64,000 bases of DNA from assembly GCF_004010195.1 (NCBI RefSeq), contig NC_057718.1, positions 4,595,021 to 4,659,020 of the forward strand. Reading direction: 5' to 3'. The DNA is from Chiloscyllium plagiosum. Lineage: Eukaryota. The position numbers and the translations under genes were made by a program. The notes below the pieces were generated by a model. It searched no databases. It saw only the letters and a program-made list of their open reading frames with translations, and was not told where the DNA came from. This document shows positions 23,473 through 57,919 of the stretch, in pieces (position 1 is the stretch's first letter; every line of letters starts with the position of its first letter).

Positions 23473-23548
23473 CAGTGTATCCGAAAGTCCGGAGATAGTG
23501 TGTTCATCGGCGGCTACAGTGTATCCGAGAGCCCGGCCACCGCAGCGG
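23473..23548 (+). other. Exon 1 (5' UTR, non-coding) of the B7/butyrophilin-like gene
   Basis: Starts ~29 nt after the start of the TATA box at an Inr-like CAGT; ends at donor CGG|GTGAGT (23549); no ATG. Confidence 0.65.
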
Positions 23549-24698
23549 GTGAGTTAGTGAGAGGCCCCAGTTTCCGTGTATTTGTCCTGTTCCCTCTCCC
23601 AAGCCCATCTCTGTCCTGGCCTCTCTTGTTTGAACCCGTTGTACTCCAGGCTCGTTGGCAACAGGGTGTGCCTGTGCTGACTCACTTCATTGGGATTGTA
23701 TGGATTGATTGTTTTCCCATCTTTCCTAAACAAAAACTCTCCGGCGTTTTCCACTGTTTTTCTTCGCGTTCTGTCTCCGTTTTACTCTGCACAGACCCCG
23801 AGTCCTCTTTCTCTGTCTGTTTGTCCCAGGAAATTCAGGCTCATCTCACCTTGTCCAGGTCTTTAGAAAGATAAAAGAGTTTAACTTCAGGAATCCGGCG
23901 CAGTCTTTCAAATTTTTTTTCTGTTCAACGGAAATCGGGAAATACTTCTTGAACAAGCAAGGTAGTTGAGATCTGAGTTCTCTCTCTGTCCATAAAGTCA
24001 GTGGATATTTAGGTAAGGATGTAGATGACAAACATGTTAAATCAAGCTAGCTCTGAAGAGCCAAAATGTTGACTCTGTTTCTCTCTCTATAAATGCTGCC
24101 TTACCTGCTGAGTTTCTCTAGCAATTTGTTTTAAAACAAGCTGGAATCTATTAGGGGGTGATTGCGTAGTCTGACTCTGTACTTACATAAAAGCTTATTA
24201 ATGTGGAAAGGTTAGGCTGAGTCCTTGAATGAAGATATGGGTGAAAATTCCTTTCTCACCCTCTGGTGTGATTAAAACCAGTCGAGGAGATCAGGTAGAC
24301 CATGCTCCTCTCTTGGAATCTGGGGTGTTGTACAGAGGTAGTTGTGAGCATGCCTTCACCATCTCATATATCCTTTGTGTACTCACGTCTGCAGATATGT
24401 GGGTTAGCTGAAGGGTAGAGATAATGAGTCAAGGATTTGGAGCATGGAGTAAATGCCCAGAGATATTGGCTCCCTGTTTCTGTCACTACCCCCTTACCCT
24501 CCCCTGACTGGAGAAGGGGGAATTGTTCATGGTCTGGGATATGTCAGGTGAGGCATGCAAATTTAGATATATTAAAATAATGTGTGCCGTATTTGAGACT
24601 TTGCTGTCATGAAAAGTGAGGAATTACCTGCTGGTGGACAGTTTAATTTCATTTCCTTAAAGTTCATGTTTTAACTTTTATATGTATCTTCCTTTAGG

Positions 24699-24756
24699 AT
24701 GAATTATCTCGTCCATACACTCATTCTACTGGCTGCTGCTGAACTGACCCGAGCAG
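24699..24756 (+). CDS. Signal-peptide exon of B7/butyrophilin-family receptor (MNYLVHTLILLAAAELTRA-G)
   Basis: Acceptor cttcctttag|G ATG, hydrophobic core, small residues near the cleavage site, donor CAG|GTAAGG, phase 1 matching the IgV exon. Confidence 0.82.
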
Positions 24757-24869
24757 GTAAGGGGATTTGTGTTTTTGTTTGCAAGGCTTTCCCATGTGCC
24801 ACTTCTCCCAGTGTGCCCAATGGTTAATTGGGAACTCTGGTGCACAGTGGAAGACATATGTCAGAAGGG

Positions 24870-25310
24870 GAGATGATGGTGAAGTAGTAATGTAATCCAG
24901 AGACCCTGCCTATTACTTTGGGAACAGAAATTCAAGGAGAAAGTGAGGACTGCAGGTGCTGGAGATCAGAGCTGAAAATGTCTTGTTGGAAAAGCGCAGC
25001 AGGTCAGGCAGCATCCAAGGAGCAGGAGAATGAGCCCTTCTTCAGAAATTCGAACCTAATCACGACAGCTCCAATTTATGAAATCTGGATTTGAAAGCTA
25101 ATCTCTGTTGGAGACCATGAAACATAAACAGCCCTTTAGGGGAGGAAATTTGTCATCCTTACCCAGTTTAATTTACATGTGACTCCAATAGTGTGATTGA
25201 CTCTTGGCTGCCTTCTGAAATGGATGAGGAAGCCACTCAATTCAAGGACAATCAAGGATGGCCAACAAATGCTAGTCTTGGCAGCAATGCCCATATTAAG
25301 TGAAAGAGGT
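24870..25310 (+). mobile_element. tRNA-derived SINE (family of 27730-28082) interrupted by a Penelope-type terminus (24934-25042)
   Basis: Matches the reverse complement of 27730-28082; insert flanked by CAGAAATTC at 24925 and 25043. Confidence 0.7.
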
Positions 25311-26060: not shown

Positions 26061-26118
26061 TTAACTTTGTGTCACATGTTTTCCTGTCCTGGTCTGTACC
26101 AGGTTCTCTTATCTAAAT

Positions 26119-28082: not shown

Positions 28083-31000
28083 TAATTGACATTTCAGCAC
28101 CAATTGCCATGCAAAGAACCTACTTTGAGGAAACCTTGTTCACCTGTCATTGAGAATATCCTTCATGCATTTACCCTGTGTAGTCCTGTTTGAATTTTGT
28201 AGGGGTTTCTCTGGAATTCCCATCTCCTTCTTCTAAACTCCGGTGAATATAGCCCTAACTGAATCCGATTCTCTTCATATGAACTGGTTTCCAGCTAATT
28301 TCTATATTGTGATGAAAATAAATCAGCGAATGTGTTGGCGAGAATAATGCTATTCCCACTCAATACTGCCCTTGCTGGCCTGCAGAACATGTTTGGGTGG
28401 TTGGGAATAAATACCTTCAGAGTCTGTAATTGGACAGGCTGTGTGACCAGTCATTGCTGTACTGGAACATTAGCAACCTGTATGTGCCAGATTTGTGAGG
28501 ACTGATGGTCCAGTCCTCTACTGTCAGCCAGACCTCCTGAAGGACAAGGTATGACTCACAATTAAAACACATGGAATAACAGCATGATCACATCCCACAC
28601 ATGGGAACAGGAAGAGGTCATTCATCTGCTGTAGCTTGTTCACTACTGAGTCTGTTCTGATTGAAATGGAAACAGAAATTACTGCAGAAACTCAATGGGA
28701 CTGGTAGCATTGGTCATCTCTATAGTTCTGAGGAAGTGTTGTTGAAGTCAACATTCATTCTTGACAGATGCTGCTGACTTTCTCCAGCAGTAATTTCTGT
28801 TTCTGTTTTTGTTTCAAATTTCCAGCATCTGCATTTATTTATTTTGTTTCTGTGTTTTGACCACAGTTAGGTGCTTTGGCTGCATATCCCTCAATATTGT
28901 CAGCCAAGAAGCATCTATCAATCTCTGTTCTGAAACTTTCACTTGACCCCTAACCTTGATGCCTTTGTTTTGGAGTTCCAGATTTTTCACTCCCTTTTGT
29001 GTGAAGAAGTGCTTCCCTAATCTAAGTCTTGAATGGCCTGGCTGTAATCTTAATGTTCTGTTCTGTCACCGCCCCCCGCCCCAGCAACTCAATTCTGCAC
29101 ACCACTCACCAGAGGAAACGGATTCTCTTTATTGACCCTGGATGCCTCCTCTAATCATTTGAACTGCCTCAAAAGCCTCTACCAACTTGTCATTATGATT
29201 AAGTGGTAACAAATGTCAGGAGCCACCAAGGCAAAACATTGCAGGTTCTGAGTTTGTGAACTAGACCATTGTATGTGGATTAACAGATTGATCATCTGTA
29301 AAGGACACGTCTGTTGACTGTGGGATCGCATGTTATGTAGTTAACTCTCCTCACTGTGTACCATCATTCCACATTTGACATAGTCATTGTCTGTGAGTGC
29401 GGAGAAAGCATTTTGTACCACACCCTCAAATAGATATTTTCCTCTCTGCTCACACAAGTTGTGCCTATTCATTAAACTGGTAGCCACCTGTAGTGGTGAG
29501 GGATCAGTGCAGTGAAACATACCAATTGCAATGACATAATTTGCATTAATCACTAAAATTAATTGAGTTGTTTCAACTTCGTGTGCCAATGTTGCATTAG
29601 GTGTCGTAATGAGTGAAAAATATGCCTCAGCCTGTTCTGAGTTGATTAATTGATGAGTTACATAATTCTAATAAAACTTATTTGGAGAATATCAGCTACA
29701 AGTTCCCCTCCAAGCTGCTCATCATTCCGACTTGCAAATATGACGCTTTTCTCTGTGTCACTGAGTCAAAATCCTAGAATTCCCTCCATAGAAGCCCCAT
29801 AACAGCTTTGTGGGTCTGTCAACACATATGGACTGCAGCTGTTCAAGAAGCCAGTTCATTACAACCTTGTCAGGCAACTAGGGCTGCACAGTAAATGCTG
29901 GCCAAGCCAGCAATGGCCACTTCCGTGAGTTAACCTAAAATAATTCTGCAGAAATACCCCTAAGAATTTGTGAAAACCTCCTTGTAATAGTTTACCTGCA
30001 ATTCCAATGGGAAGCCTAGAATTGTTTCATCCGGGTGGAGATGGTGTGAAATCTTTTTAGGAAAAACTTCAAATAAGTTTGCACCTTTTTTATTTCTTTG
30101 TTACTTGCCTCATCCCTTTCTTGAGTTGACCTTGTCATCACAGCCACATATTGAAGAGTAATTGTGGGCCATGCAACTGATGGGAAATAGCTTTAACACA
30201 AACTGAAATGGTTCACTGGATAGGACCAGATTAGGTGTAGTGGAAAGTACAAAGAAAGATGTCCACAGATAGTTTATTTATTTGGCAAGACTTATCATGC
30301 TGAATAGCAGAGCAGCCATGAGGGCCTGAATAGCCTGCTCCAAATGTGTATGTTAGAGTAAAACCCAGCTGTGAGAATATGGGAGGGATAGGCTATCTCT
30401 GTGTCTCACAGAATGTGTACAGCAAGATGCTCTGAAATTGGATGGATCACCTGATACTGACTTAAAAGGGACGTGAGGGCAACATTTTCACACAGAGGGT
30501 GGTGCATGCGTGGAACGAGCTGCCAGAGGTGGGTACAAATACAACATTCAAAGAATATTTGGACAGGTACATGAATAGGAAAGATTTGGAAAGATGTGGA
30601 CCAAATGTAGGTAGGTGGGATTAGATAAGTTTGGGAAACCTGGTCAGCATGGACAAGTTGGACTGAAGGATCTGCTTCTGTGCTATGTGACTCTGGCTTT
30701 TTTAAAGCACTGGAAATGACAGACTGATAATAGCTCTACTGACCCTGCAAAGTTCTCCCTGCCATCTGGGGAGTAGTGCCAGAATTGGGAGAAGTTTCTC
30801 ACCGATTAGTCAAACAACAGCCTAAGACAGTTATACTCTTGGAATTATGCCTTTATAGATAATGTCCCAGACACCACAATCACCATTCCTGGATATGTCC
30901 TGTCTCATCAGTAGTGCAGACCCAGCTGAGGGGACAGAACAGTGGCATAGAGTCAGGAAGGAGTTGCTTTAAGAGTCTGCAACATTTGTGCTGGACCCCA

Positions 31001-33120
31001 TGAAATCTCCATGCTTCAGGACAAACATGGGCAAGGAAACCTGCTCAATACCACTTAGTCCTCCTTCAGGTGATGAAACGGGACTCCTCAATGCAAGAGT
31101 ACAAAATGCCCTCTGGATGGAGGATTTCAATGCCTTGGTGGCAGAACTGTTGATCAAGCTGGTTGGGTCCTAAAGGACACAGTTGCAAGACTAGGTTTGT
31201 GGCAGGTGTTGAGGGACCTGAGGGGAAAAACGTACATGACCTCATCCTTCCCAACCTGCCGGCTGCAAATGTATCTGTCCATGACAGTATCGGTAAGAGT
31301 GACCACCACGCAGTCCTTGTGTAGACAAAGTTCTCCCTTCACATTTAAGAAACACCTCTATTGTGTTATGTGGCACTATCACCATGCTAAATGGGACAGA
31401 TTTCACACAAACTAACAACTCAAGACTAGGCATCTTTGAGGCGTTGTGGGCCATCAACAACAGCAGAACTGTACTCCAGCACAATCTGTAACCTCATGAA
31501 TCTGCATATCCTCCACTCAACCATTACCATCAAGTCAGGGGATCAACCCTGGTTCATTGGGGAGTGCAGGAAGACATGCCATGAGCAGCAGCAGACACCT
31601 GAAGGTGAGGAGTCAACCTGTGCCAAGCTACAATGCAGGACTACTTGCACACCAAACGGCATAAGTAGCAAGTAATAGACAGAGCAAAATGATCCCACAG
31701 CCACTGGGTCACATCTAAGCTCGGCAGTTCTACCACATCCAGTCAGGAATTGTGGTGGACAATTAAACAATTCACTTGAGGAGGAGCCTCCACAAATATC
31801 CTCATCCTCAATGATGGAAGAGTCCAGCACGTCAGGGCAAAAGACAATACCTGAAGCATTCACAACAATCTCAAGCCAGAAGTGCCATATGGATGATCCA
31901 TCTCTGCCTACTCCAGTGGTCCGCTGCATTGCAGATATAAGTTTTTAGCTAATTCAATTCATGCCACATGATATCAAGAAATGGTTGGGGCCACTGGATA
32001 CTGTAAAGGCTATGGTCCCTGACAATACTCCAGCAAATGTACAGAAGAATTGTGCTCCAGAACTTGCCACTCCCCTCGCCAAGCTGTTCCATTACAGTTA
32101 CAACACTGGCATCTACCCAACAATGTGGAAAATTACCCAGTTATTTTCTGCACACACAAAGTGGGACAAATCCAAACCAGCCAATTACTGTCCATCATTT
32201 ACTCTCCGTCATCAGTAAAGTGATGGAAAGTGTCATCAGATGCTGCTTGATAGCACTGTTGCTCAGCAACAACCTGTTCAGTGACGCCCAGTTTGGGTTC
32301 CACTAGGGCCACTCGGTTTTTGACCTCATTACGGCCTTGGTTCAGAGACGGACAAAAAAGCTGAATTCCTGAGGTGAGGTGAGAGTGACAGCCCTTGTCA
32401 TCAAGATTACATTTCACTGCGTGTGGCTTCAGGTAGCCCGAGAAAAACTGGAATGAATAGGAATCTGGCAGTGACTGGAGTTGTATCTGACACGTCACTC
32501 CTCCAGGACATCTCTACAGGAGTTCCTAAGGGGAGTGTCCAAGGCCCAACCTTCTTCATCAACAACCTTCCCTCCATCATTAGGTCAGAAGTGGAGAAGT
32601 TGAGCACCATTCATGATTCTTCAGTAACTGTAGCAGTCCATGTCTAAATGCAGCAAGACTTGGACAATATCCAAGCATGGCTTGACAAGTGTCATGTAAC
32701 ATTGCTCCAGTTGTGTGGTGTGAAACACTATCTCCAAAAAGAGAGAATCCAACCATCGCCCCTTGACATTCAGTAGAATTACCATCACTCTAACCCCCAC
32801 AATCAGTGTCCTGGAAGTTACCATTGACCAGAAGCTGAACTAGATTTGCCAAACAAAATCCTGAAGAAGGGCTATACCCGAAATGTCGACTTCTCCATCT
32901 CCTGATGCTGCCTGGCTTGCTGTTTTCCTCCAGTCTCTTGGTTGTCTATCTTGGATTCCAACATTTGCAGCTTTTTTGTCTCTATATAAATACTGTGGTT
33001 ACAATGGCATGTCAGAGCCAAGTAGTCCTGCAGCAATTATTTCACATCCTGACTCCTCAGAAGCTACAAGGGAAAAGTCAGGAGTATGATGGAATACTCC
33101 CCATTTGTCTAAATAAGCGT

Positions 33121-33248
33121 GATTCCTGAAGAAGGGCTTATGCCCGAAACGTCGATTCTCCTGTTCCCTGGATGCTGCCTGACCTGCGCTTTTCCAACAA
33201 CACATTTTCAGCTCTGATCTCCAGCATCTGCAGACCTCACTTTCTCCT
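33121..33248 (+). mobile_element. Penelope-type terminus with hammerhead-like core
   Basis: GATTC-CTGAAGA-A-GGGC(TTAT)GCCC-GAAACGTC-GATTC; near-identical to 26119-26244. Confidence 0.85.
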
Positions 33249-33273
33249 AACTCCTACAGTACTCAAACTTGAC

Positions 33274-33632
33274 ACTTGATCCTAGGACAAGCCAAACAAA
33301 GATACGCATGAGAATTTCTAGAAGCATGACATTCCAACCGGAACTTGTATCAACAAACACATCGAGTTAGACCCCATCTATCACCCCCTGAGAAAAGGAA
33401 CAGGAAGTGACTTCACCACAGGAAATAACATCACAGGAAATGACATCACCAACCCAAGGAAACCCAAACATATAAATAGAAAGCAGGAATTTTCAGCAAT
33501 GCTCCACCTGAGGCCCACTGAAGATGTTACCTAGTAGGGTGACAAAACATCTGGAAATGAACCTTCCAGCTCAGCGAGCAAACCTACATCCAAAACCTCA
33601 ACCTGAGGAACAAATCTTCTCAAAACTCAGTA
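33274..33632 (+). mobile_element. Penelope-like element 3' end (GIY-YIG C-terminus + pLTR)
   Basis: INKHIELDPIYHPLRK, homologous to 15600-15660; CTGAAGATGTTACC..GGTGACAAAAC; TSD AAACTTGAC 33265/33633; fragment repeated at ~37945-38016. Confidence 0.8.
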
Positions 33633-36195: not shown

Positions 36196-36204
36196 CAATT
36201 AAAC

Positions 36205-41685: not shown

Positions 41686-41748
41686 GTACACACTCACTCT
41701 CACACTCTCTCTCACTCTCTCACTCTCACGCTCACACTCACACTCACT
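41686..41748. repeat. Compound (CA)/(CT) microsatellite
   Basis: Seen directly. Confidence 0.9.
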
Positions 41749-42895: not shown

Positions 42896-44422
42896 CCAAA
42901 TGTTAACCTCTGGTGCTGCAGGAATTCAACCCACCCTGTTGGGCTTCACTCTGCATCATAAAGCATCCATAGCAAACTGACATTCGGCAAAACGTGTACT
43001 GGAGTGACACAGCTACCTGGATCATTGCTGATTGAATCACTCAGAACATGACAGCTCACCCTCTTCTGATAATCTGAACCACTCGAAGTGAGAGATAGCC
43101 AAAGTTCCTTGTACTGACTGTGAAGTACAGTTGATTTTCAGTTTTTAAGTATGGAGTCAAAAAATGTGGTGTTGGAAAAGCACAGCTGGTCAGGCAGCAT
43201 CCGAGGAGCAGGAGAGTCGACATTTTGAGTGTAAGCTCTTCAGCGGGGTATTAAGTGTGGAGATTTTGGGGTGAGGTCAGGTGTAAAGGTTAAGGGCTGA
43301 TGGTCAGTGTTGGGGGAAGTGAAGATGGTTACTGATGGTCTGCCACTCTGCGCAAGAGGAGGCTCCAAGGTTATTTATGCAAGTTTTTATTTACTCTTCG
43401 GACGTGGGACTGGCTGGGCCCAGCGTTTATTGCCCGTCCCTAGTTGTCCCCTTGAGAAGGTGGGGATGAGCTGCCTTCTTGAACAGCTGCAGTCCATGTG
43501 CTGTACATAGACCCACAATGCCCTTAGGGAGGGAATTCTAGGATTTTGACCCAGTGACACTGAAGGAGTGGCAATATATTTCCAAGGTAAGTGTCTTGAA
43601 GGGGAACATGTATCTGTTGCCTATGTCCTTCTCGGTTGAGGTGGTTGTGCTGTGTGAGGATCTTTGGTGAATTTCTGCAGCCCATCTTGTAGATGGTACA
43701 CACTGCTGTGACTGAGTGTTGGTATTGGAGAGTGTCAGTGTTTGTGAATGTGATGCTAACTAAAATTCTTCCCTCACCTTCAGAGCCTCAGTGAATCAAT
43801 TTTCCTACATTTCGATACAAAGTAAAGTCGCTTGAACCCAATGTTGAGAACGAAACACATCCATTGGTGTGTGTTTTTCTTTGAGATGCTAATTAGCTTT
43901 CTTTACTTGGGGCTCACACTGGCCAGATTGGATCCTTTCACCTGCAGTGACGTTTCAGCTGTAAATCCAGGTTTGTGTACCAGGGGCTTGAAAGGGCACT
44001 GTGCAATCCACTGTCATCCTGCTCTCTGAAAGAGGCTTTTCTCAATTGGGTAGGAAGCAGAGGTATGTCAATGGAGTTCGTTTTGAATATTTTTACATCA
44101 GAGAAGGGTAGATCTTTGGTTAGGCTATTGCGGGAGGGTAAGTGGGAATGTGGATTTGTGATTGCCATCAGGTTAACCGTGATTTCATTGAATGGTGGAG
44201 CGAGGTCGAGAGGCCGAATGGCCTCCTCAGACTCCTTGTTTGTATGAATCGAGGTGCAAATCCGCTATGATTGGAGAGAATGGTGGGCCAGTCCCAAGGG
44301 GCCGAATGGCCTCTTGTTGAGGTTCCTGAGCACATTGTAAGGTATTTGGTGTTGGTGTTCACGGTTGGTATATTGTCTACAGTGATGAACTAATCATCCC
44401 TCTTTAATATCTCACTCTCCAG

Positions 44423-44770
44423 GTCATGTTAAAGTGAGATGTAAAGAGGAGCAAATCACAGCCAAGGCTGGTGAAGATGACATCATCCAGTGCCGATTTT
44501 ATTCCAGAAACAAGGCTGGCAGTGTGGCTTTCGTTTGGAAGAAGGAGGATGCTGCAGGGATTATCTACAATTACACGATGAGCCACAGCAGCCTGGAGGA
44601 ACAGGAACCCAGCTACCGAGACAGAGTCGAGGTCTTTGACAATGAAATTCCGAAAGGGAATGTGTCCCTTAGATTGAAGAACGTGACTCTCTCTGACTCT
44701 GGTATCTACAAACTCTCCGTTGCCACCCGATCCCAAACCACTGAGACACAGGTCTTGCTCAGTATAAGAG
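44423..44770 (+). CDS. IgV exon of B7/butyrophilin-family receptor (VTCN1/B7-H4-like by eye)
   Basis: Acceptor ctctccag|, donor AG|GTAAGA, 348 nt, phase 1-1; GEDDIIQCRF, VW, EQEPSYRDRVEVF, GNVSLRLKNVTLSDSGIY are B7/BTN V-set motifs. Confidence 0.92.
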
Positions 44771-46140
44771 GTAAGAATAGGCAACTTTCGTCTTGTTGAC
44801 TAAAACAAAAATGGATTCATTGCTTCTTTCAGAAACTCTTGTACAGGTGTCAGTCTGATCATGATTGGAGAAAAGCAGTATTTAAACTTGGATACTAAAA
44901 GCATTTATTATACAGATATATATATTTTTTAAAAATCAAAATTAAATCCTGTCCTGGGCTTTGTTTGTGTTCCTTCCCTCAATCTGCGCCCAGCATCTTT
45001 CCACAGCAGCTCAAGCGAGTCCAGGAAATCATCGTGTGTGGGATTGGGATCATGGCTTGAGACATTTGCTATTACTTGTGGTCGTATGTCAGAGCTCTAA
45101 CACAATGTGCCACATTGCTGCCTCCTTATTCATCAGTGCTTTTTAAAAGCAGAAGGGATCTGGAGAGGAGTACTTTCAACTGGAAGTACTGCTGCTCCCA
45201 TCTGGACAAGGTAATTTAAAACGTGTATGATGCCTCTGCCTTGGAATGCATTGTCTGTCATCTCGTTGGGCTGATAAAAGTAACGTATATACCGTAATCG
45301 TCTCATTCGTTGTTATAAGGTGCACTTTAATCTGCTGAATGTTAATGGGTGATGACCCCTCTCTGACTAGAGTCTTTAATAATAATAATTATCATCCTCT
45401 TTCTTGCAATGGAGGAGTTTCTGGCAAGGTGGACTTCTGTTTTCCATCCCCGTAGTTGTCCTACGACTGGGCGATAAATACCATCTGAAGTGAGTCCGTT
45501 GAGGATCAGTCATGTTGAAGTCTCTCAGACACCCAGATTTAATTCCTGGAAGGCTAATCAAAGAATGGGAATTTTGATTTGGGGTGAGTTAGGATTTGGG
45601 CAGTCCAGTTTTCCACCTGCTCAGATAGATAACACAACCATGGGCAAGTTTCCCCAACAAATGGGCTGAGTTGTGTGGTGACTGCATAGTTCACAAGAAA
45701 TCCCACAGGCGTCTGCCCCTGTTTGAGGGAGAGAGAAAGAGAGAGTGAGTTGGTTACATACCACTGCACATTAAGCTGTGGACAAAGCAAGGAGGTGTTG
45801 TGGACTCTAATTTCCACATTAAAAGCCATGCTGCATCGAGCTCTGGCCGTGTAGCCAAATGAACTGAAGTGTGGAGATGGTTTATATTATGGAGGAGCAG
45901 AAGTAGGCATCTTGGGTCTTCATGAGGGATTTGGGGTGAGCAGCTCAGGTTGGGGTCGGATCTGTGCTGTGCAGCTTACGTATCCTGCCTTTCTCATTCT
46001 AGTAATGGTATTAGTTCCTTCTCTCCAATGGAGTAAAGTTTCAAGTCTTTGCCAGTTACTGAAAATATAAAACAGTAGCTCCACTGAATCTGCCTCTTTT
46101 ATGGCCTGGGATACTGATCAGAGGCACCAAGCCAGAGTAC

Positions 46141-46760
46141 TGTTATGGACCAGAACAAACCCCCTTAAAATATATTAAGGTAGCCTTGACCCAACTTGTT
46201 CTTATTTTAAAGGTAAACGTCAAGTTCCATGTTTCAGATGCAGTTTGATTGATCAAAGTACTCGATGCTAAACAAAACACAATTTATTCAAACACCATAG
46301 TTAAAATACAACAAAAGAAACAGGAATTTGGAATAGCTTAACTCTATTGGAAAACCTAACAGAATAAATACAGTAACTATTACTCATTAACTGTTCCAGC
46401 ATAGTAACATTGATTAACACATCCTTTAGCAAAGAGGTAAATTTAGACAAACTGATTTGTCTCCCATGCCTAGGAAGAGAATACCCAGCTTTTAGCTGTA
46501 ATTTGAGAGAGGAACAAATGGCTTTCACTTCTTCAAGACCTCAACAACAACTGCTACTGAAAACAAAAAATCTTGGTTCGGTGGGTGGGAGCTTGACTAC
46601 ACCCATTCAGGCTGCTTCTATTGTACCAACTTCTTAAGAAAAAAACACCCAAGGCTTCACTGGTTGTTTATCTTCTCACAGACTGCTCGGTACTTGTCCC
46701 CCAATCTCTCTCAAAGAAACCAGGACAAAACACACCTCTTAAAGCCACAGCATCCTCATT
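46141..46760 (-). mobile_element. Solo LTR-like element (~620 bp)
   Basis: Starts TGTTATGG; minus-strand AATAAA at ~46283-46288; layout similar to 13118-13995; right end degenerate. Confidence 0.5.
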
Positions 46761-47439
46761 GTAAACATACTGGCTGAGGACCACATAATTACTTGGAAGT
46801 ACTGAGCTTCTCCAATGAATTTTCAGTGCTGGGTCGGGTGCAGGGTTGAGACAAGCACCGTGGTCTTAGTGAGATAACTGAATAACGCCATCAGGAGGGA
46901 ATTCAATTTCCAAATCCCTTTGGAACAGAGAGAGAGAATTTATACAGCATCTTCTTTATATCCAGAACAATTTACAGAATAATATATTTTTGATTTGTAG
47001 TTGCTTTTGTATCATGGAAAGTGCAGCAGCAAATTGACATTCAGCAAGCTTTCACAAGTAGTAATTGATAACAGCAAGTGTCATGTCCTGGCCAAGTCTC
47101 CAAATAGAGCACGCGCGCGCACACACACACACACCCACACCTTTTACTGCAACTTTTTGACATGTTCCACCTTTGCCCTGGATAGGACAATGTTAGAGAG
47201 ATTATCTGGGGAAGGGGGGGGTTAGGTACACGCTTGTGTAGAACTCGAGAGAAAGTGTTGGGGGGGGGGGGGGGGGGGCCGGGGTGGGTTGGCGAAAGAC
47301 GTCAATCATTTGGAGACGGTGCCTGGGCTCTCATCCATCCAGGACTGTTCTTGGTAGCATTTCAGTCAGCCGAGTTCACTTTTAATCACTGTAAACGAAA
47401 GATGTGATCAGTATTGGAAATGTGTCTTTGATGTAATGC

Positions 47440-47520
47440 ATCTTGGGATCTTGAGATCTCCTTTGGATAATCCGATTATTTGGATAATTGATATTCAGAT
47501 AATCGAGGTTCCTCTCTATG
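47440..47520. mobile_element. Tigger-like TIR remnant
   Basis: Repeated GGATAAT/GATAATC ending ATAATCGAGGTTCCTCT; partner TIR not found. Confidence 0.45.
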
Positions 47521-48029
47521 CCCTCTGCAATGAGAACTTCTTTAAGACCTCTCATGTTTCTTAACAAATTCAATTACTCAGGTGACAAGGGATGGTGAAG
47601 TCTTGTGGAGAGGTCGAGCACTGAGTGAAGTTGTGCCATCTCCCAAGCAGCATAAGTGAAGTTCTAAGGCAACTGTGGAGAGGTTGTTTCCCCTAGGACT
47701 CTGGTCTTAGACCAGAGGGTCTAATTTCAGAACAAGGAACAACCATTTTCAGACAGCAATGAGGAGGGATTCCTTCTTAGAGGCTAGTGAATCTGTGCAG
47801 TTCTTTACTGCAGAGGCTGGGTCAATAAAAATCTATCACAGCCTTGAATACACTTAATTAGTCAGGGAATCAAGGGTATAGGGAAAAGGCAGGAAAATGG
47901 AAGGATTATTGGGTCAACCATGATCTCATTGAATGATAGAACAGATTTGATGGGCTAAATGCTTTACTTCTGCTCCTACAGCTTGTGCTCCAACACTTAT
48001 AGTTTTAATGGTGACCTTATGGTTTTGGG

Positions 48030-48365
48030 CTGGCATGATGGCTCAGTGGTTAGCACTACTGCCTCACAGCACCATGGATCCAGGTTCGATTCCAGCCTTT
48101 GGTGACTGTCTGTGTGGAGTTTTCACATTGTCTCTGTGTCTGTTTGGGTTTCTTCTGGGTGCTCCTGTTTCCTCCCACAGTCCAAAGATGTGTAAGTTAG
48201 ATGGATCGGCCACTTTAAATTGCCCGTAGTGTTCAGGGATGTATAGGTTAGGTGGATTATTGGGATATGCAGGGTTAGAGTGATACAGTAGGGGAGTGTT
48301 TCTGGGTGGGTTGGGGTGGACTTGATGATCCAAATGACCAGCTTCCACGCTGTAGGGATTCTGTG
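48030..48365 (+). mobile_element. HE1-type SINE
   Basis: TGGCTCAGTGGTTAGCACTACTGCCTCACAGC...GGTTCGATTCC...CTGTAGGGATTCTGTGA. Confidence 0.9.
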
Positions 48366-50084
48366 ACTTTTGGGGACTATTGTAGTGACTGGGATTGTTA
48401 AAGGTGCAGATGGATGGTGGGAAATTGCCTGCTTTCTGTCTGTTCTGCAGTGCAATCAATCTGGTGAATCATGTAAAAATAACCAGAATTTATAGAAATT
48501 TATTTCCCTTTAGATTTTTAACTCTGCGAGGTCAATGATTTATACTGGAGCACAGATAGCTTTCTGCTCCAGGTCACCTTCCACACTGACCCCTGGTTTT
48601 CTTACTTGGGAGCTGAGAGAGTCATCCCTGAACCATGACTGAAAGATTCAAAAGGCCAAGTTTTCAGGGCACAGTGAAGAGGGTGGGGCCTGGGAAAAAA
48701 ATCTGTGATTGAACAACATGCAAAAATTTTAATATCAAGTATCTTTTTAGCTGGACATCCCTGGAAAATACAACAACCTGGTTCCTACTTTTGAACTTTT
48801 CATTTTCTGCCTCAGACTACCTGATGTTATAAACCTCTTGGAATTTAATTTGACCATGAGATCAGCCAAATAAATGATGTCATGTATTAGGAACATTGAG
48901 TGAATAAAGATATGGTTTACTGAAGAATGTTCAATTTGATGTAACCCACCCACCAGTGTCTCACTGTCTTTTGTATGCACATGAATTACGTTGAATTGTA
49001 CAGCACGGGAGGATGCTATTTGTCCCATTAGAACCAGTTCCAACTCTTTGAAAAACAACCCTCTAATTGGTCCCACTGTCCTGCCTAGTCACCCCTATCT
49101 CTTCATATGTTCCCTTTGTGTGTTTATCCAATTCCTTTCTGAAAGTCATCATGGAATTTGATTTCATTGCCTTTTCCAGCTGCGTATTCCAAATCATAAT
49201 GATATGCTGCAATTAAGAAAACAATTCTCCTTTTCCAGTTTGTTTCCAAATGTGCTAACTCTGATAAATGAAGTCTCTGATCCTCCTGCCTCCAGAACAG
49301 TAACTCCTTCACGACAAACTCTTAATTATTAAAATCTGTGTCAATTTTTCCCCCCACCCTTTAATCTTCTCTATGCAAAGGAAAACACCCCCAACCCCTC
49401 CACCTACCAAACTGAAGAGTGTCATCTGTGGAATATCAACAGAAGATGCTTGAAACCCTCAGCAGGCCTGGCAGCATCTTTGGAGAGAGAAACAGAGTTT
49501 ACTTCAGAACCCACACTGACCTCCAAAACATTAACTGGGTGCCACTCTTCACAGATGCTGATAGACCTGCTGTGTTTCTCCAGCTCTTTCTATTTTTATT
49601 CCAGATTTTCAGCATCTGCAGAATTTAGCATTTATTTATGTCAACCGTGATCTTGCTTAAGTAAATCTCCTCTGCACCTCGTACACGGTCGTCTTACGCT
49701 TCCTTGAGATTAATTGCCTGAATTGGACACATGATCCTAGTCGAGGCCTAACTGTTATTTTTTGAAGGTTAACCATCATTTCCTTTCTTTTGTCCCTGTT
49801 CGTGAAGCCCCAGGATCACATGGCACGTCAACTTGTTGTTAAAGGCAATTACTGAAGCCGGTTCAACTTCAACAAGACTCTGCTTCCATCCCCTTCTCTT
49901 CTGGTCTTCCCTGCCCTATTCCCACCTCATAACTGTAGCCATAAAGAGGGTCATCGATTCTCAAGCAGTTGTCCTGTGAGAGCCCCAGTGGACAGCAGTG
50001 CTGGTGTTTTAAAGAAGACTCAATGAGGTAAGGTTTCATCTGCCTTGCTGACTCAGTTCAGATTGTTTGCTTTTTGCTTTGCAG

Positions 50085-50366
50085 CTCTTGGCACGCAGCC
50101 TGTCATTCATTCACCTTCCGATGAGCTGGGCCTGTTGGTGCTGGTCTGCGAGTCCTCAGGGTGGTACCCGGCTCCTCGCGTGACCTGGGAAAATGGACTA
50201 GGCGAGAATCTAACCAGCTACTCGCACACACAGCTAACTAACTGCAAGGGTGGCAGTGTCTGTGTGAAGAGCACGCTAGAAATGGATAACTGGCCCACCG
50301 GCAACTACACGTGCACGATGTGGGACCAGGAATTGGATGAGGGAGTGTCGTCTACTTTCACTCTGA
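50085..50366 (+). CDS. IgC exon of B7/butyrophilin-family receptor
   Basis: Acceptor ttttgctttgcag|, donor A|GTGAGT, 282 nt, phase 1-1; (A)LGTQPVI..LVCESSGWYPAPRVTW..G.NL..NYTC matches BTN/B7 C domains. Confidence 0.92.
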
Positions 50367-51769
50367 GTGAGTATGGCCTGCAATATTGCAGTAAAGTTGT
50401 GTGAAATGGATAATGTCAGTGAAACTGTCTAACGTGGCCTGAAAAATTAAATCCAACTTCAGTTCGGCAGATTGTTCTGTTTTGATTTTTCTTTCGTTTT
50501 CTGGGGGGGGGGGGGGTCTGTGCTCAAAGCTTGCAAGACAGTTGGTAATAAGGATGGGGCGAGATCAGAGGTTTAATTTACACTGAGTTATGATGATCGA
50601 GGGTGCACTGCCTGCCCCAGTGGTGGGGGTGCAGTGAGTTGGATAAGTACTTGAAAAGGAGGCATTCACAAGTCTAGAAGGAGAGGACAGAGGAGTGGAA
50701 CCAATTGGACAGCACTTTCCAAGAGCTAGCACCGGTGCAATGGGCAGAGTGGCCTCTTTTGTTCTGAATTTCTGCCCAATGAAATGTTTTCTATTGAAAG
50801 TCATCCATAAAACCATAAGATATAGGAGCAGGATTAGGCCTTTCAGCCCATTGAGTCTGCTTTGTCATTTGATTGTATCTGATATGTTTCTTAAACCAAT
50901 TCACCAGCCTTCTCTCTGTAACCCTTGACCCACTTACTAATCAAGAGCCTACTTATCACTCTGTTAAAGACATTTAATGACTTGGTCTCCACAGCCCTCA
51001 ATGGCAATGAGTTACACAGATTAAGAATCATCTTGATGAAAACATTCCTCCTCATATCAGTTCTAAAGGGTCATCCCTTCACTCTGAGGTTGTCCCCCTG
51101 GGTGTTAGTCTCCTGGTCTCATTGTTCATTTGGCAGTCTTGGATATCAACACGCCTCTTTAGGGAGGTGTCTGGAGTAGGCCTAGCTTCCAGCAGTAACT
51201 GTAATCCTATTCCTTGAGAATGGAAGTTGAACTAAACCATCGTTGATTTGAGCAACTCTTATCATTTGGAACTGCCTGTGATGGTTGTGAGAGTTGGAAG
51301 CCAGAGACTTGATGAAAGAAATTAACCCTGAACCTACCTCAACTTTCCGTGGAGTGACCTCTTCACAATTCCTGCCCTGATTCGCTTCAGCCTTTTGGGG
51401 AGCCTCTGAGCCGGTTTGCTCTGGGAGGAGTGGAGGATGGCAGCAACCATTATTTAATGCTGTTTCTGGGATATAGGCTCCATTTAACACTAGACCCCCT
51501 CCCTGAAGTGTATTGAACTTGTAGTTTTACAGTGCTGTCAGCAACAGTTTAAAAGGACCTGTGGTATTTCCAGTTCCTTCTGACAACTAACTTGGACTGG
51601 TGACCAGCTCTAAGGCAGATTAAGGAATGCTGTCCTCTAGTGAACTGTGATTTCCACTTGAGAGCTTGCACCTTGTAGCCAGGTCACAGACTTCAGTGGC
51701 CCACTTTAGTGGCAGTGAGGAAGTCTGAAAGACTGACAAAGCCCCAGCCTTGAACTCGAGGAGACAGAC

Positions 51770-52060
51770 TCCGGTGGCACAATGGTTAGCACTGCTGTCT
51801 CACAGCACCAAGGATCTTGATTTGATTCCAGCCTCAGGTGACTGTGCAAACTCTACCAGACATTCTCCCCGTTTCCTCGCACAGTTCAAAGATGTGCAGA
51901 CTAGACAAATTGCCCAAAGTATCCAGGGATTTGCAGACTAAATAGGTTATCCTTGGGAAATGCTGGGTTACAGGGATGAAGAGGGTCTGGATGGGATGGT
52001 CTTTAGTGAGTTGATATTTCTCAATGGGCCAAATGACCTGCTCTGCACAGTAGGAATTCT
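51770..52060 (+). mobile_element. Degenerate HE1-type SINE
   Basis: GTGGCACAATGGTTAGCACTGCTGTCTCACAGC head; AAAGATGTGCAG core. Confidence 0.75.
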
Positions 52061-52531
52061 ATGGTAGTTCACCTGCAGCCTGCATCTCTGTAGCACCTTT
52101 AACATCCCAGGGACTTCACAGGAGAGTCATCCAGCAAAGGATGACATTGACCAAGTTTCCATACATGGCTCTAAGGGACAAGGAAGTACTTCAGGGAAGT
52201 GGGAGGCAGAGCCAGGAGGGAATTTCTGGAGGTTAAACCCTAAGCAGTTTGAAAGCTTTGCCAACAACACAGGAGCAGTGAAACTCGGGTGCACATGATG
52301 CCAGAGAACTTTGTTCTAGATCTGGAGGAGATCACAAGAAGGAGCAAGGATCTTGGAGGCGTTTCATAACAAGGTTAAGAATCCTTGTTACTGAGATTCC
52401 ACAGAATAGATGGTGGCTGATTTAAGAGGTAAATGTTTTAAATGCAGTGGTCAGAAAGCAGCTCTTAGGTTCTTGCATTGTGGGACTAAGACTAGAAGTG
52501 AATATCATAGCAATGTCTGAATGTTTTACAG

Positions 52532-52626
52532 TTCACAGGGTACCACTGGGTACAGTCATCGGTGCGACTGGTGCAAGCGTTTGTGCTTTCATTCTGATTG
52601 TCGCTGTCTGTTGGAGCTGGTGGTAA
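52532..52626 (+). CDS. Transmembrane exon (coding part) of B7/butyrophilin-family receptor; exon extends to donor at 52655
   Basis: Acceptor ttttacag|, phase 1 gives (I)HRVPLGTVIGATGASVCAFILIVAVCWSWW* (TAA 52624-52626); donor TG|GTGAGT at 52656; spliced ORF 783 nt = 260 aa. Confidence 0.8.
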
Positions 52627-53479
52627 CAAGCAAGTGATACGATTGGGATTTTGTGGTGAGTATCTGACACACACCCACTCCCCTTCCCTTCAGTGCAGTG
52701 CAAACTGAAAAGCTGAAGCAACAGATAGGATCTTTCCAATCTGTGTCTATTTGGTTGATCTCTTTTCTGTGATATTTCATGGGAGTGTAATTGTCCAGAA
52801 AAAAAGAATCTGTGAGCAATGATTTTAATGATCAGCGTCAAACTTCCATGTTTAAAATTTAATCGGAGCCTGGCAGTTTACTGTCAATCCTTATTATCCA
52901 AGGTAGCAATTTTACCAATCAGAATCCACTTGTCAATCAATCGGCACTCTCATCTCATACAGTGTAAATGTTGTTCCCTTTTTACTGTCAGTATTCTTAT
53001 GAGTTGTCCTGATGAATGCAACGTGAAAACCTATGTCACATGCTCTTTGTCCAGCAATACTAACTTGTATTTATTAATTGATTGATTGGAATTTAAATTC
53101 CAAGCAGCTCTTGTGGTAGGATTTGGCGTCCATGTCACCAGGGCATTCAGCTGAGCCTCTGAATTACTCCTTCAGTGAGATTACTGCTGTAATATTGCCC
53201 ATACATTGGAAAGTGAACCACAAGATATAGGAGCAGAATTAGGCCACTGCTCTGCCATTTGATCATGTCTGATATGTTTCTCAGCCCATTCTGCTTGTAA
53301 TTCTCTGTGTAATTCTTGATCCCCTTACGAATCAAGATCTATTTATCTCTGTCTTAAATAGACTCTACAGCCCTCTGCAGCAATCACTTCCACAGATTTA
53401 CCATCCCTCTGGCTGAAGCAATCCCTCCTCATCTCAGTTCTAAAGGGTTGTCCCTTCACTCTGTGACTGTGCCCTCCTA

Positions 53480-55000
53480 AAACATAGAACAGTACATGCA
53501 GGGACAAGCCCATCATGCCGACTATGATGTTCTAGTCTAATCCGATCTGCCTGCCCATGGTCTATATCCCTCTATTCCCTGTCTGCTCATGTCTCTGTCT
53601 GTTCAACGCTGCTATCTGCTTCTACCATCTCCCCTGGCAGCTTCTGTGTTTACCACACATTTTGTTTACACTCCCCCTCCCCCCACCCTAAACTTCCTAG
53701 TATTTGACACGATTCCCACACGATCCAACCGCTTCATAATTTTATTTACTTCAATCAGGTCACCCATTCAGCCTCTGACTCTCCGAGTTTGTCCATCCTC
53801 TCCTGTATAGCTAATACTCTCCAAGGCAGACAATATCCTGGTAAACCTCTTCGCACCCTCATCAAAACCTCTACATCCTTCCTATAGTGTAACGACCCGA
53901 ACTGCACGCAATACTCCAAGCATGGCCTGACCAAAGCCTTATACAGTTGCAACATGACATGCCAACTTTTATACTCAGTGCCCCAGTGATGAAGACAAGC
54001 ATGCAATATGCCTTCTTCACCACCTTATCCCCTTGTGTTGCCACTTTCAGGCAGGTAAGAATCTGCACCCAAAGATCCCTCTGCATATCAATGCTCCAAA
54101 GGGTCTGGATATTTACTGTTTGCTTTCCTCTTGCATTTGACCTTAGCAAATGCATCACCTCACACTTGTCTGGATTAAATTCCATCTGCCATTTCTCCAC
54201 CCAACTTCCCAGTTGATCTATATTCTGCTGTATCTTTCAATATCCTTCCTCTCTATCCACACCTCCATCTATTTCCTGCTAGTGGAAACATCTTCTCCAT
54301 GTCTACTGCATCCAGGCCGCTCAGTGTTCTGTAAGTTTCAGTCAAATCCTCCCTCATATTTCTAAATTCCATTGAGCATAGACCCAGAGTCCTTACCCAC
54401 TTGCCATATCCTTGGGATTGTTGTTGGAGGCAGTCCAGAGGATATTTACAAGGCCAGAGGTATCATCCTTAGACATGGGCCCAAAACTGCTCACACTATG
54501 CCTGATGCAATCTGACCAGAGCCTCATACAGCCTCAGCTGTCCATCTCTGCTCTTGTATTCTAGCCTTCTTTAAATAAATGCTAACATTGCATTTGCTTT
54601 TCTAACTGCCACCTGAACCTCGATGTTAACCTTAAAAGAATCCTGAACTAGGACTCCTAAGTGCCTCTGTACTTAAGATTTCCACAGACTTTCCCTGTTT
54701 AGAAAGTAGTCTATGCTTATATTCTTTCTACCAAAGTGCATAACGTCACACTTTCCCACACTGTATTCCATCTGCTACTTTTTTACCCACCCTCCGAGCT
54801 TGTCCAAGTCCTTTTGCATCCTGCCCACTTCTTAAACACTATCTGCTCCTCCACCTATCTCTGTATCCTCTACAAACTTAGCAACAATGCCCTCGGTTCC
54901 TGCATCCAAAACATTAACATATAGCGTGAATAGTTGTTATCCCAACACTGATTCTTGCGGAACTGCCCTCGTCGTCGGTTGCCACTTTACCCCACTCTCT
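53480..55000 (-). mobile_element. Two CR1 LINE 3' fragments
   Basis: MLQLYKALVRPCLEYCVQF; KWQMEFNPDKCEVMH. Confidence 0.85.
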
Positions 55001-55157
55001 GCCTCAGCCAATCAATTCCATGGTTCAGGCTGTTTGTTCCCTGTGTGATAGTTTCCCAATTTCTGTGCAACCTAAAAAGAACATTGATGCCAGTTAACCC
55101 CCAGGTGTTGTCCGTGCATGAAATGGAGTGACTATTAAATTGTGTTTTCTTTGCCAG

Positions 55158-55207
55158 GTTCCTCCTGTGTAACTATCACTGAAGACTCTGTTGGTTTAAA
55201 GGTGTGA
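55158..55207 (+). other. Probable downstream exon of the B7-like gene (3' UTR or cytoplasmic tail)
   Basis: Strong acceptor tgtgttttctttgccag| in non-repetitive DNA; phase-1 reading (G)SSCVTITEDSVGLKV*. Confidence 0.5.
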
Positions 55208-57919
55208 ACACAAGACAAGCTGGACTGGGTGAAAAGGACTTTGTTTCCACCCTGTACCAAATGAGGACTCCTCTTCTTTCCTATTAGAAGATACCAGAAC
55301 CAACTGAGTTCCAGTGTTAAACCTTCCTGAGTGCAGGTGTTACAGCGTTCTGCTCCACACAGGCTGTCATGCAGTCAGAAAGGAACAAAAAGACTGGTGC
55401 TATTTTAATGGGTTTGTTTTTTTGCACTTTACAGTGTGGTCCTTGCGCTGTGTGTCAAGAGTTCAATGATGTATTGCTGCAAAAGAAAAAAAACTGACTT
55501 TTACAATCAGGGATTTTGCAGGTCGAGAGTATAATTTAACCGGTCAATTCTCACTTTCTATCTAGCATGTTGTATAGCAATGGCTTTACTTTTTTTCCTT
55601 TTAAGCAACAGTTGTTAAGTACACTGATGAAAGTCTGTTTTATAGCATTGAGTAACCCACTTCCAAGGAGCCATGAACCGATTTCACTGGATTCTGGTCA
55701 GATTACTTCATGCCCTGAGGAAGGTTAAACTGGTACGATGATAAATCTTTAGAACTAATCCAAGCAAATCCATTAAGACGTTGCTGTTTTGTCCAAGTCT
55801 ATATTGTGGAGATGGGCCGGTCCCATGATGCCAGCAAGAAAGCAGTTGTGGGGTGATCACTTCTCCTTGCAATTGTTACACTTTCCATCAATCTCACTTC
55901 AATCCCATCTGCAGAGTGTTTGTGTTTTTGGAGTTTAATTGTCAGGCAGCCTGTAGTTTTTCCTGGTTGATCTGCCTCACCTTTTATTTTGCAACCATTT
56001 GGGAGTGAGAATTCTTGTGAACTTTCTTCATACGGGTATAATCTGACTCCGCATTCACAGATTATGTCACACAAGCTGCAAGCACCACGACATTAGTCCC
56101 TCTCATGTTGTGATGAGCTAAATTGCTTGGAGATTTCTAGACAGGAGGAGGCCATTTATCCCATGCTATTTAGAGTCAGTTTTGTAGCCCATTGTAAAAC
56201 TAAATCCAACTGCCCTCCTCTCTATCCACATACCCCTGTACCTAACCTTGCTTCTAATATTTATCCAGATCTCCTTTTTATTTAAAAAAAAAAGTTATTT
56301 CCTATAACACTGTACCAACTCCTGAAACAACTAACCTTTTCCACCATCTATGATTAATATAATTAATCACTGGCGCTCCAGCCAGCGGAAACTATCTTTC
56401 CCCTGTTGCCTTATTAAAATAATTTTTAAAACACTTATATTAGATAATCTGTTGACACTTCATTGAAAGCAGTGTGTGTATAGGAACAGGAGTAGGTCAT
56501 TGATCCCCCTTGAGCTGTTCCATCAATCGAGACGGTCCTGGTTGATCAATAATGATAAAAACAAGTTAGATTTGGTGTTCCTTGAGTTTAAAAGATTAAA
56601 TTGTGATCTAATTGGCTGCTCAAGATTATTAAAAGTTATAGGGCATAGACAGAGAAATCCTATTTCCTCATAGAGGTCCAGAGCAAAATACCAGCAGGTT
56701 GTTCAAGGCTGATTGTAGGAAGCACGTCTTCACACATAGGTTGTTGGAAACCTGGAGCATCTTCTCAAAACGCTCTGAGGCTTAGAGTCAGTTCAAAATT
56801 TCAGGTTTGTTGTTATGGTTTCCAGAAACAAGGTGGTCAGCTGACATTAAGATACAGCTCAGTGAGAATTGCATTAGGAATAAAGGATCAGGAATATGCC
56901 ATTGAGGTCTCTGGTGTCTGTTTGCCTGGATGATTTGGTGATGGTCAGTCTGTGCCCTAACTACATTTACTTGCCATTGTCCACATCCCTTAATGTATCT
57001 GATGAACAAGAATGAGAAAATTATGTAGTCTTTTTTAAACTGAGTGAAAAATGTGTACCTGAAGTCTCTCCCTCCAACAATGATTGCCTGTGGTTTCTGG
57101 GAATAACACTCCCCACCACTTTAATAATCTGTAATGACATCCCCCAAGACCAAAGACTGAGTTTGTGCTGTGACCTATCAAATTTCTCACCAGGTTAAGA
57201 AAATTCAGTATTAATTCTTGAGATGTGGGTGTGACTGACAGGGCAGCTAGTTACTGCCATCCCCTATTAGCCTAAGGTAGTGGTGATGGTATTAGAGTAC
57301 TTGGACAGTTCAGAACATCGGAACAGTTTGCCAACCTATTTCAGAGGGCAGTTTGAGTCAACTGCGGATGGGCAGATTGTGAAAGGATGCCAGGTTTCCT
57401 TCTCTAAAGCGCACAAATAGATTGGTCAGCTTTTCTGATTATCTAAAGTTTCAGCATCACTTTTACTGATATATCTCCTTTTTATTTATTGATTTAGTTT
57501 GAAAATAAAATCATCTTTCCGTGTTGGGATTTCAGCTTTTGTTTTCTGCGTTGGCAGTCGAATACCTAACCACACTGCTAATTTTATAGTCCCAGATTTT
57601 GTTGCCTCCTGTTCTGCCTTATCCATCAGCCCTAACTCTTTCAGCACCTTAAGCATTTCTGCATCTGTATCTCTTTGTGCCACTCCTACTGCTGTTATCT
57701 TGTGTTCCCTCTCACTCAATACTTAGACACAATGGTATATTCCCTCATGCCTCTGCACTTCTGTATATGTCTTCCCATTCCATGTCTTCCTGAAATCTTC
57801 TATAGCCTACCTCACTGTTTTTAACAAGCCTCTTACTTTTGTGCCATCACTGAATTTTGAGGTGAGGTTCCATACTCTCATCCAAATAATCACCTGCATA
57901 AAGAATGATCTTACATTTA

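Follow-up and report, generated by a model that had tools for sequence, protein, structure and literature searches.

In the genome of the shark Chiloscyllium plagiosum (3.56 Gb) we analyzed a stretch of 64,000 nucleotides, C9:4595021-4659020 (hereafter the window; positions are those of the window unless a contig is named), and found that it holds an expressed gene of the B7 family that spans at least 24.7-59.5 kb and probably starts at 3.2 kb. Its product is a 260-aa type I B7-superfamily glycoprotein made of a signal peptide, an immunoglobulin V-type (IgV) domain, an immunoglobulin C-type (IgC) domain, a short stalk and one hydrophobic segment, with no cytoplasmic tail. The gene, here called clade A, is the slowest-evolving of three neighboring paralogues, the other two being clades B and C. 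Together our results suggest that clade A is probably an expressed, tail-less B7 ligand related to VTCN1 (B7-H4) that is neither the positional VTCN1 of sharks, nor CD276, nor a butyrophilin.

A spliced gene for a tail-less IgV-IgC protein

The window is of vertebrate type, about 43% GC and rich in repeats. Among its stop-to-stop open reading frames (ORFs), the one at 44389-44799 is IgV-like and the one at 50027-50404 IgC-like. A first-pass annotation, made from the sequence alone, had built four coding exons with canonical splice sites and phase-1 junctions into a protein of 260 residues with five N-glycosylation sequons. Re-reading and scripted joining of the exons (Table 1) bore this out: all coding-exon boundaries have canonical AG/GT sites and phase-1 junctions, and the joined exons encode 260 aa with a single stop and five N-x-S/T sequons (NYT69, NVS99, NVT106, NLT177 and NYT209). 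Pfam finds a V-set domain (6.5e-12) and a C2-set_3 domain (1.1e-15) in the product. Signal peptide, IgV, IgC and single membrane segment, with one phase-1 exon per domain, make up the layout of the B7 superfamily. The stop codon lies 3 residues past the hydrophobic core, and the spliced contig goes on from there as 3' untranslated region (3'UTR).

Table 1. Features of the clade A gene in the window
Feature	Position	Strand	Remarks
CpG-rich stretch, candidate promoter	2600-3200	.	GC 0.58-0.60, CpG observed/expected 0.83-0.84 (sliding windows of 400 nt)
Alternative upstream 5' exon with in-frame ATG	3160-3245	+	encodes the first 29 residues of the 289-aa RefSeq form; donor GT at 3246
Putative non-coding exon 1 of the first-pass annotation	23473-23548	+	donor GTGAGT at 23549; read from sequence
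Leader exon	24698-24756	+	ATG at 24699; acceptor ...tcctttag, donor gtaagg; 19 codons + 1 base (MNYLVHTLILLAAAELTRA); phase 1
IgV exon	44423-44770	+	116 codons, phase 1-1; F-strand Cys replaced by Leu, extra A-strand Cys
Conserved element in the IgV-IgC intron	44994-45213	+	tblastn of the P0022 and P0007 tails
IgC exon	50085-50366	+	94 codons, phase 1-1; clade-specific additional Cys pair (NC..SVC)
Stalk and transmembrane (TM) exon	52532-52655	+	TAA stop codon at 52624-52626, followed by 29 nt of 3'UTR; donor GTGAGT at 52656
Last exon, entirely 3'UTR	55158 to at least 59480	+	contigs of X1, X5 and X18

Assembled contigs of three public runs (X1, X18 and X5), taken to be RNA, were aligned to positions 44300-64000. 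The GT..AG joint 44770>50085, on which the first-pass annotation had staked its gene model beforehand, was seen in two of the three contig runs (X1 and X5; shorter side 28 letters), and the joint 50366>52532 in all three. A further GT..AG joint, 52654/5>55157/8, is likewise present in all three and marks an intron of about 2.5 kb within the 3'UTR; this intron had been missed, and the gene end first placed at 55497 falls inside the 3'UTR last exon that all three runs support. A 4732-nt contig (X1 record 4) covers 50083-50366, 52532-52654 and 55157-59480, giving a last exon of at least 4.3 kb; the contig halts at a high-copy repeat, so 59480 is a minimum for the 3' end. At the other side, 256 letters from outside the stretch directly precede the IgV acceptor (44420-44423) in X18 record 7, so that an upstream exon is spliced to this acceptor; the 3-letter overlap arises because the leader ends in CAG. 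Eleven orthologous models read ...A-G-H/R-V/F-K across the leader-IgV joint.

A retrocopy was rejected as the source of these joints; in the genome search the gene appears as separate exons only, on contig C9. Intron contigs are present in the same runs, pointing to unspliced RNA or some DNA among them. The raw single-cell run X20 placed 0 reads on 44300-64000 and hence gave no test of splicing. Four high-copy repeats that break transcript contigs lie at 47585-48241, 59411-60067, 60725-61381 and 62696-63352, where the summed contig depth is about 2,700-22,800 (X1, X5) or 490-4,000 (X18), against tens elsewhere. Within the introns, 31000-33300 and 53750-54240 hold long ORFs on both strands that look reverse-transcriptase-like by eye and resemble retroelement fragments.

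An annotated but uncharacterised elasmobranch gene

The gene had been described as hidden, a claim that does not hold. Over its whole length the product is identical to residues 30-289 of RefSeq XP_043551214.1 (P0192, 289 aa, 'butyrophilin-like protein 2', Chiloscyllium plagiosum), which was found in the 90% cluster of the best match, and orthologues have been annotated in at least 12 elasmobranch species. The gene is thus already in public gene models; it is an uncharacterised member of the known B7 family. Orthologues of 260-261 aa from Cetorhinus, Heterodontus, Heptranchias, Pristiophorus, Hemiscyllium, Rhincodon and C. punctatum share the leader start and begin at its MNY/MNC methionine, so the 260-aa form is the conserved product. 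Naming is inconsistent, with six different labels on this same gene (BTNL1, BTNL2, BTN1A1-like, CD276 antigen homolog/-like, VTCN1-like and MOG-like), and automatic names are in this sense unreliable.

The suggestion that the gene is lineage-specific stands, as all nameable relatives above about 40% identity come from elasmobranchs. With the IgV exon as query, 13 proteins were returned at E <= 1e-5, every one from a shark, skate or ray, and a search with the Cetorhinus orthologue returned 23, of which 20 are elasmobranch-named and three are unnamed transcript-derived sequences. The word-index homology searches returned no tetrapod B7 protein; one of them added three teleost multi-V proteins. 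These shark genes are not described in the portions consulted of the full-text literature, subscription papers excepted (including PMC12151841, PMC13262535, PMC10751288, PMC11599192 and PMC6795676).

A cluster of three paralogues on C9

Using the paralogue P0011 as a genome query, we located two relatives of clade A on the same contig and many weaker loci elsewhere in the genome. The clade B gene (locus L011, C9:4564022-4567877, minus strand) stands head-to-head with the clade A gene, about 27 kb before the first base of the window and about 30 kb upstream of the gene itself, and its exons are 97-100% identical to RefSeq 'VTCN1-like' P0011. Clade B shares with clade A the cluster, the IgV cysteine pattern, the exon plan and a tail-less ...WSW end, but the two proteins are 57% identical and the clade B gene is compact, occupying 3.9 kb against at least 35 kb for clade A. 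The clade C gene (locus L012, P0210, 'CD276 antigen homolog', 396 aa; C9:4514483-4519875, minus strand) lies about 80 kb upstream. It has the same cluster, IgV cysteine pattern and exon plan, but is 34% identical to clade A and has a V-C-C structure with a second IgC domain and a 30-residue cytoplasmic tail. The tail of clade C is conserved, and its two IgC exons resemble a tandem exon duplication. The genera in which both A and B turned up are Heterodontus, Pristiophorus, Carcharodon, Rhincodon, Chiloscyllium and Hemiscyllium; the two clades also occur in skates and rays, but in different species of this sample.

The three genes share an unusual set of cysteines. The F-strand cysteine of the IgV domain (Y-x-C) is replaced by leucine or valine in all 23 rows of clades A, B and C (the clade A gene reads Y-K-L), and all 23 carry a cysteine in the A strand (VRC, VKC or VGC); Y-x-C is kept in six of six VTCN1-type rows. 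The canonical B-to-F-strand IgV disulfide, which is typical of the family without strictly defining it, is therefore missing from clade A, and a disulfide between the A and B strands may take its place in all three clades. Two further IgC cysteines (NC..SVC) are found in clade A alone.

An AlphaFold model of the protein (mfa613e9ec860, from a 29-row alignment) has a mean predicted local distance difference test (pLDDT) score of 77.5, with 81-97 over most of both Ig domains; residues 274-288 form a terminal helix of low confidence. The best Foldseek matches of the model are the IgV-IgC ectodomains of PD-L1, BTN3A1, BTN1A1, BTN2A1, ICOS-L and B7-H3 (target TM-score up to 0.86, E 2.5e-18 and weaker), and the predicted ectodomain is in this respect like solved B7 and butyrophilin structures.

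Relation to VTCN1 and CD276

The V domain had been described as resembling VTCN1/B7-H4, and this agrees with comparison to solved structures: human VTCN1 (4gos) is the best match of the IgV domain at 61.6 bits and about 37% identity over 89 residues, followed by MOG as the next single-domain match (38.7 bits), BTNL3 (36.9) and PD-L1 (33.8). The two IgV domains share the motif ...GN-SLRLKNV-L-D-G-Y-K. The IgC domain is nearest to CD276 and BTN1A1, and no VTCN1 chain is among its matches.

Human VTCN1 also matches a second V-C gene, at C12:44.80 Mb (locus L010, 298-609 + 2157-2543), with 64.8 bits. A GH47 gene (C12:45.11-45.20 Mb) and a TENT5 gene (C12:45.52 Mb) are 0.3 and 0.7 Mb away from it, an arrangement that agrees with the human gene order, which we take to be VTCN1-MAN1A2-TENT5C. 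None of the 41 genome matches to GH47 is on C9, nor is any TENT5 match. The C12 gene is the positional shark VTCN1, and a clade A gene that is the VTCN1 orthologue by position was rejected, the conserved V-C/GH47/TENT5 neighborhood being on C12 and not on C9. All seven named shark orthologues of the C12 type are called VTCN1 or VTCN1-like, in two species without '-like'. The C12-type models of seven shark species are 241-244 aa long, end in ...DDGEPSPDL and have no hydrophobic segment, so that shark VTCN1 proper may be secreted, unless a TM exon was missed.

Clade A and the shark VTCN1 type have an IgV-IgC ectodomain in common, but differ in several respects. They are on different chromosomes, and clade A has no MAN1A2-like or TENT5 neighbor. 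The VTCN1-type proteins (P0220, P0180, P0182-P0187) keep the F-strand cysteine of the IgV domain, whereas clade A has leucine or valine there together with the invariant A-strand cysteine. Clade A also evolves much more slowly, with 84% identity between Chiloscyllium and Heterodontus against 54% for the VTCN1 type.

CD276 was rejected as an identity for clade A. The true CD276 is at C40:3710300-3713100 (L033, about 3.71 Mb); it is highly conserved and its V exon scores 110 bits to CD276, against 25-29 bits per domain for clade A, which moreover falls outside the CD276 branch of the tree below. Membership of the B7 family, an IgV-IgC structure and the Pfam domain C2-set_3 are common to both. 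With the CD276 orthologue on C40, RefSeq misnames clades A and C in calling them 'CD276 homolog'. Besides the C40 locus, of which a 2.8-kb piece was examined, B7-like loci are found on C23, C27, C12 (51.9 Mb) and C34.

For the tree we used one V-C unit per protein, cut by hidden Markov models made from clades A and B. The rows were 11 of clade A, 10 of clade B, four of clade C, eight of the positional VTCN1 type, the C40 CD276 unit and 26 others. These 26 come from the best 150 of an exhaustive search, isoforms and near-copies excluded, and each holds adjacent V and C domains whose scores sum to at least 88; those with names are teleost, gar, bichir, turtle, bat and shark models called butyrophilin (BTN), BTN-like (BTNL), Skint-like or 'hemicentin-like'. 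In the careful tree (60 rows, 215 columns) A and B group together with support of 99/96, A, B and C with 100/98, and the three clades with shark VTCN1 with 97/84. CD276 is outside this last group, and the 26 BTN-like rows are on one side of an 82/84 branch. Removing CD276 left the same groups; when the VTCN1 clade was removed, the attachment point of A/B/C stayed the same, lying between CD276 and the others. Within this sample a VTCN1-related rather than a butyrophilin position of A/B/C is well supported and is the best-supported placement, not a proven one.

Whether clade A has a one-to-one orthologue among described genes, a check proposed by the first-pass annotation, is thereby answered in part: clade A is neither the positional VTCN1 nor CD276, and the VTCN1-related placement stops short of proof. 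It could be argued that clade A is itself a one-to-one or lineage-specific co-orthologue of VTCN1 that does the job of B7-H4, the soluble C12 gene being the derived copy. Human VTCN1 is by far the best solved match of the clade A IgV domain, A/B/C are sister to the positional shark VTCN1, and clade A ends in a tail-less hydrophobic segment, as human VTCN1 presumably does, while the C12-type models have none. We nonetheless consider this quite unlikely. The order of V-C gene, GH47 and TENT5 is on C12 and the C9 neighbors are ALO-domain and GBP genes; RefSeq calls the C12-type gene VTCN1; and the clade A IgV domain lacks the canonical cysteine that VTCN1-type sequences keep.

Clade A is not a butyrophilin

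The first-pass annotation had seen in the gene a possible intermediate between B7 and butyrophilins, a view that our results do not support. C2-set_3 is also found in seven of seven shark VTCN1-type proteins and so is no butyrophilin marker, the gene has no B30.2 exon and no tail, and the tree joins A/B/C to VTCN1. Butyrophilin identity was rejected on the same grounds, as clade A has neither B30.2 nor a BTN-type tail and stands apart from the 26 BTN-like rows (97/84). Compared with the butyrophilins and BTNL proteins (BTN1A1, BTN2A1, BTN3A1-3, BTNL3/8), clade A shares the ectodomain fold (target TM-score 0.81-0.86) and C2-set_3 but has no B30.2/PRY-SPRY domain, juxtamembrane coiled coil or tail.

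A more specific proposal would make clade A a BTNL/Skint-type protein that, as a heteromer with clade B, selects or regulates gamma-delta T cells in the manner of BTNL3/BTNL8 or Btnl1/Btnl6. Adjacent BTNL paralogues form heteromers, and A and B are adjacent, occur together in six shark genera and share the membrane pattern G-x-x-G...IL-x-V-x-V-x-WSW. In addition, the RefSeq name is 'butyrophilin-like protein 2', C2-set_3 is modelled on the BTN3A2 IgC domain and BTN ectodomains are among the best structural matches. We regard the proposal as very unlikely, since clade A has neither a B30.2 domain nor a tail, the contig passing from the stop codon into 3'UTR, and A/B/C stand apart (97/84) from BTN/BTNL/Skint-like rows that include turtle BTN1A1 and a shark BTN3A2-like protein.

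Constraint and the membrane segment

Among these groups clade A is the most constrained. Chiloscyllium and Heterodontus are 84% identical in clade A, 71% in clade B and 54% in the VTCN1 type; between shark and skate identity is 72% for clade A, 53-59% for clade B, with 59% for the pair of Chiloscyllium and skate, and 64% for clade C, and for the VTCN1 type it is just 54-57% among sharks. Within clade A (10 orthologues) the stalk and membrane segment (IHRVPLGTVIGATGASVCAFILIVAVCWSWW) is 87-100% identical, the IgC domain 81-99% and the IgV domain 63-98%. The membrane segment is rich in small residues and near-invariant (GTVIGATGAS...CWSWW), and clade B retains the glycine-containing pattern given above.

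The C-terminus could alternatively be a cleaved glycosylphosphatidylinositol (GPI) attachment signal, the mature protein then being a lipid-anchored IgV-IgC ligand and not a transmembrane one. About 25 hydrophobic residues stand at the very end with no cytoplasmic residues after them, ahead of them lie a short spacer (FTLIHRVPL) and the small residues VSS, a possible cleavage site, and human B7-H4 was formerly proposed to be GPI-linked. GPI signals, however, are usually poorly conserved, and in clade A no part of the protein is better conserved than this segment; the pattern of the segment is common to clade B, which fits a working membrane helix, and AlphaFold places a helix at 274-288, though with low confidence. 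A lipid anchor is thus unlikely in our view, and we retain a membrane-spanning, tail-less ligand.

Several observations weigh against the interpretation of clade A as an expressed, VTCN1-related B7 ligand. On the side of expression and gene structure, the RNA nature of the three contig runs is guessed, the leader-IgV joint 24756>44423 is predicted from the X18 contig and the 11 orthologous models, the contig alignment having covered 44300-64000, and the use of the 5' exons (3160-3245 or the putative 23473-23548) is at the level of candidates. As to kinship, the tree program issued a long-branch warning where the VTCN1 clade meets A/B/C, and the tree contains no bony-vertebrate VTCN1, HHLA2, PD-L1, ICOSLG or CD80/86. 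Human VTCN1 scores nearly equally against the clade A IgV domain and the C12 gene, and it is clade A that has the tail-less hydrophobic end while the positional shark VTCN1 models have no TM segment; an exchange of roles or co-orthology between the two is conceivable. Finally, the tail-less hydrophobic C-terminus also fits a GPI-attachment signal, and conservation this strong, which is not usual in immune ligands, could indicate a role outside immunity.

IgV-only transcripts and a conserved intronic element

Several batoid sequences, either gene models or proteins derived from transcripts (P0007, P0022 and the six-member P0023 cluster), stop after the IgV domain plus a short tail. By tblastn these tails match the conserved element in the IgV-IgC intron of the shark gene (Table 1) in three high-scoring segment pairs and three frames, the best of which, where the shark frame contains a stop, reaches 74.6% over 63 aa (E 6.8e-28). 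In the batoid IgV-only transcripts the element is part of an exon. A conserved peptide after the IgV domain was rejected as an explanation, because the matches fall in three different frames; what is conserved is therefore the nucleotide sequence rather than any one peptide.

In the shark, an acceptor at 44993 used in phase 1 would add a 35-residue tail (A from G44770+CA, then SFHS...GRMSEL) before a stop, and reading through the donor would add GKNRQLSSC and then a stop. Contigs of all three runs span 44741-45472 or further, continuous with the IgV exon; the joints listed from the three contig runs do not include 44770>44994. Read-through or an alternative exon in this intron probably yields a soluble IgV-only product, and the element itself may be an alternative terminal exon or an element that controls splicing or polyadenylation.

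Upstream exons and flanking genes

The first exon proposed by the first-pass annotation differs from that of the 289-aa RefSeq form, whose upstream exon lies 21 kb ahead of the leader exon (Table 1). In tblastn, residues 1-29 of P0001 match positions 3160-3246 at 100% identity, and P0192 has the same 29 residues. The CpG-rich stretch just ahead of this far-upstream exon is a candidate promoter, as judged from base composition. The putative non-coding exon has a good donor, and around it the CpG observed/expected ratio is 0.76-0.87 across 23000-23800, a weaker signal than at the upstream stretch. Positions 3577-3627 match the N-terminal extension of a Stegostoma model (P0193; 59% over 17 residues) but contain a stop here, and look like another species-variable 5' exon region.

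Two further genes flank the cluster. Exons of an ALO domain (GULO-like, vitamin-C synthesis) lie at C9:4457400-4459550 (L027), about 55 kb beyond clade C, and exons of a GBP N-terminal GTPase domain at C9:4702700-4743430 (L017 and L021), about 44 kb past the end of the window. A Pfam scan of the 200-kb flanks, covering 300 of the 366 single-copy ORFs that reach 70 aa (the rest being 64 under 78 aa and two others), found only the GBP-domain gene, the ALO-domain gene and one DDE transposase fragment; short exons escape such a scan. To our knowledge neither the ALO nor the GBP gene adjoins a human B7 gene.

Proposed function and significance

From the family and the anatomy of the protein, we propose that clade A would be displayed on the cell surface and act in trans as a co-signaling ligand, the IgV face binding a receptor on lymphocytes. 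With no tail, the clade A protein alone would not signal inward. Its near-invariant, small-residue-rich membrane segment probably drives lateral association, and a second class of transcripts, from read-through or the alternative intronic exon, would supply the soluble IgV-only form.

A bolder version of this scheme, to which we give little credence, would have A, B and C as an elasmobranch-only offshoot of the VTCN1 lineage with an A-B-strand disulfide, a heteromeric A+B ligand and an IgV-only decoy. The glycine-rich helix would pair A with B, the conserved intronic element would control the decoy, and A+B would bind either an orphan CD28-family receptor (CD28X or CD28HL1/2, described in PMC11599192) or a gamma-delta T-cell receptor.

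Whatever the partner of clade A as a VTCN1-related, tail-less ligand, the setting is of interest for the B7 family, as no living lineage with B7/CD28-type co-signaling is older than the cartilaginous fish. These have, according to a recent survey (PMC11599192), several CD28-family receptors without a known ligand. The A/B/C trio, kept in every shark, skate and ray examined and with one member, clade A, held at 72% identity between shark and skate, offers sensible candidate ligands for these orphan CD28-family receptors.

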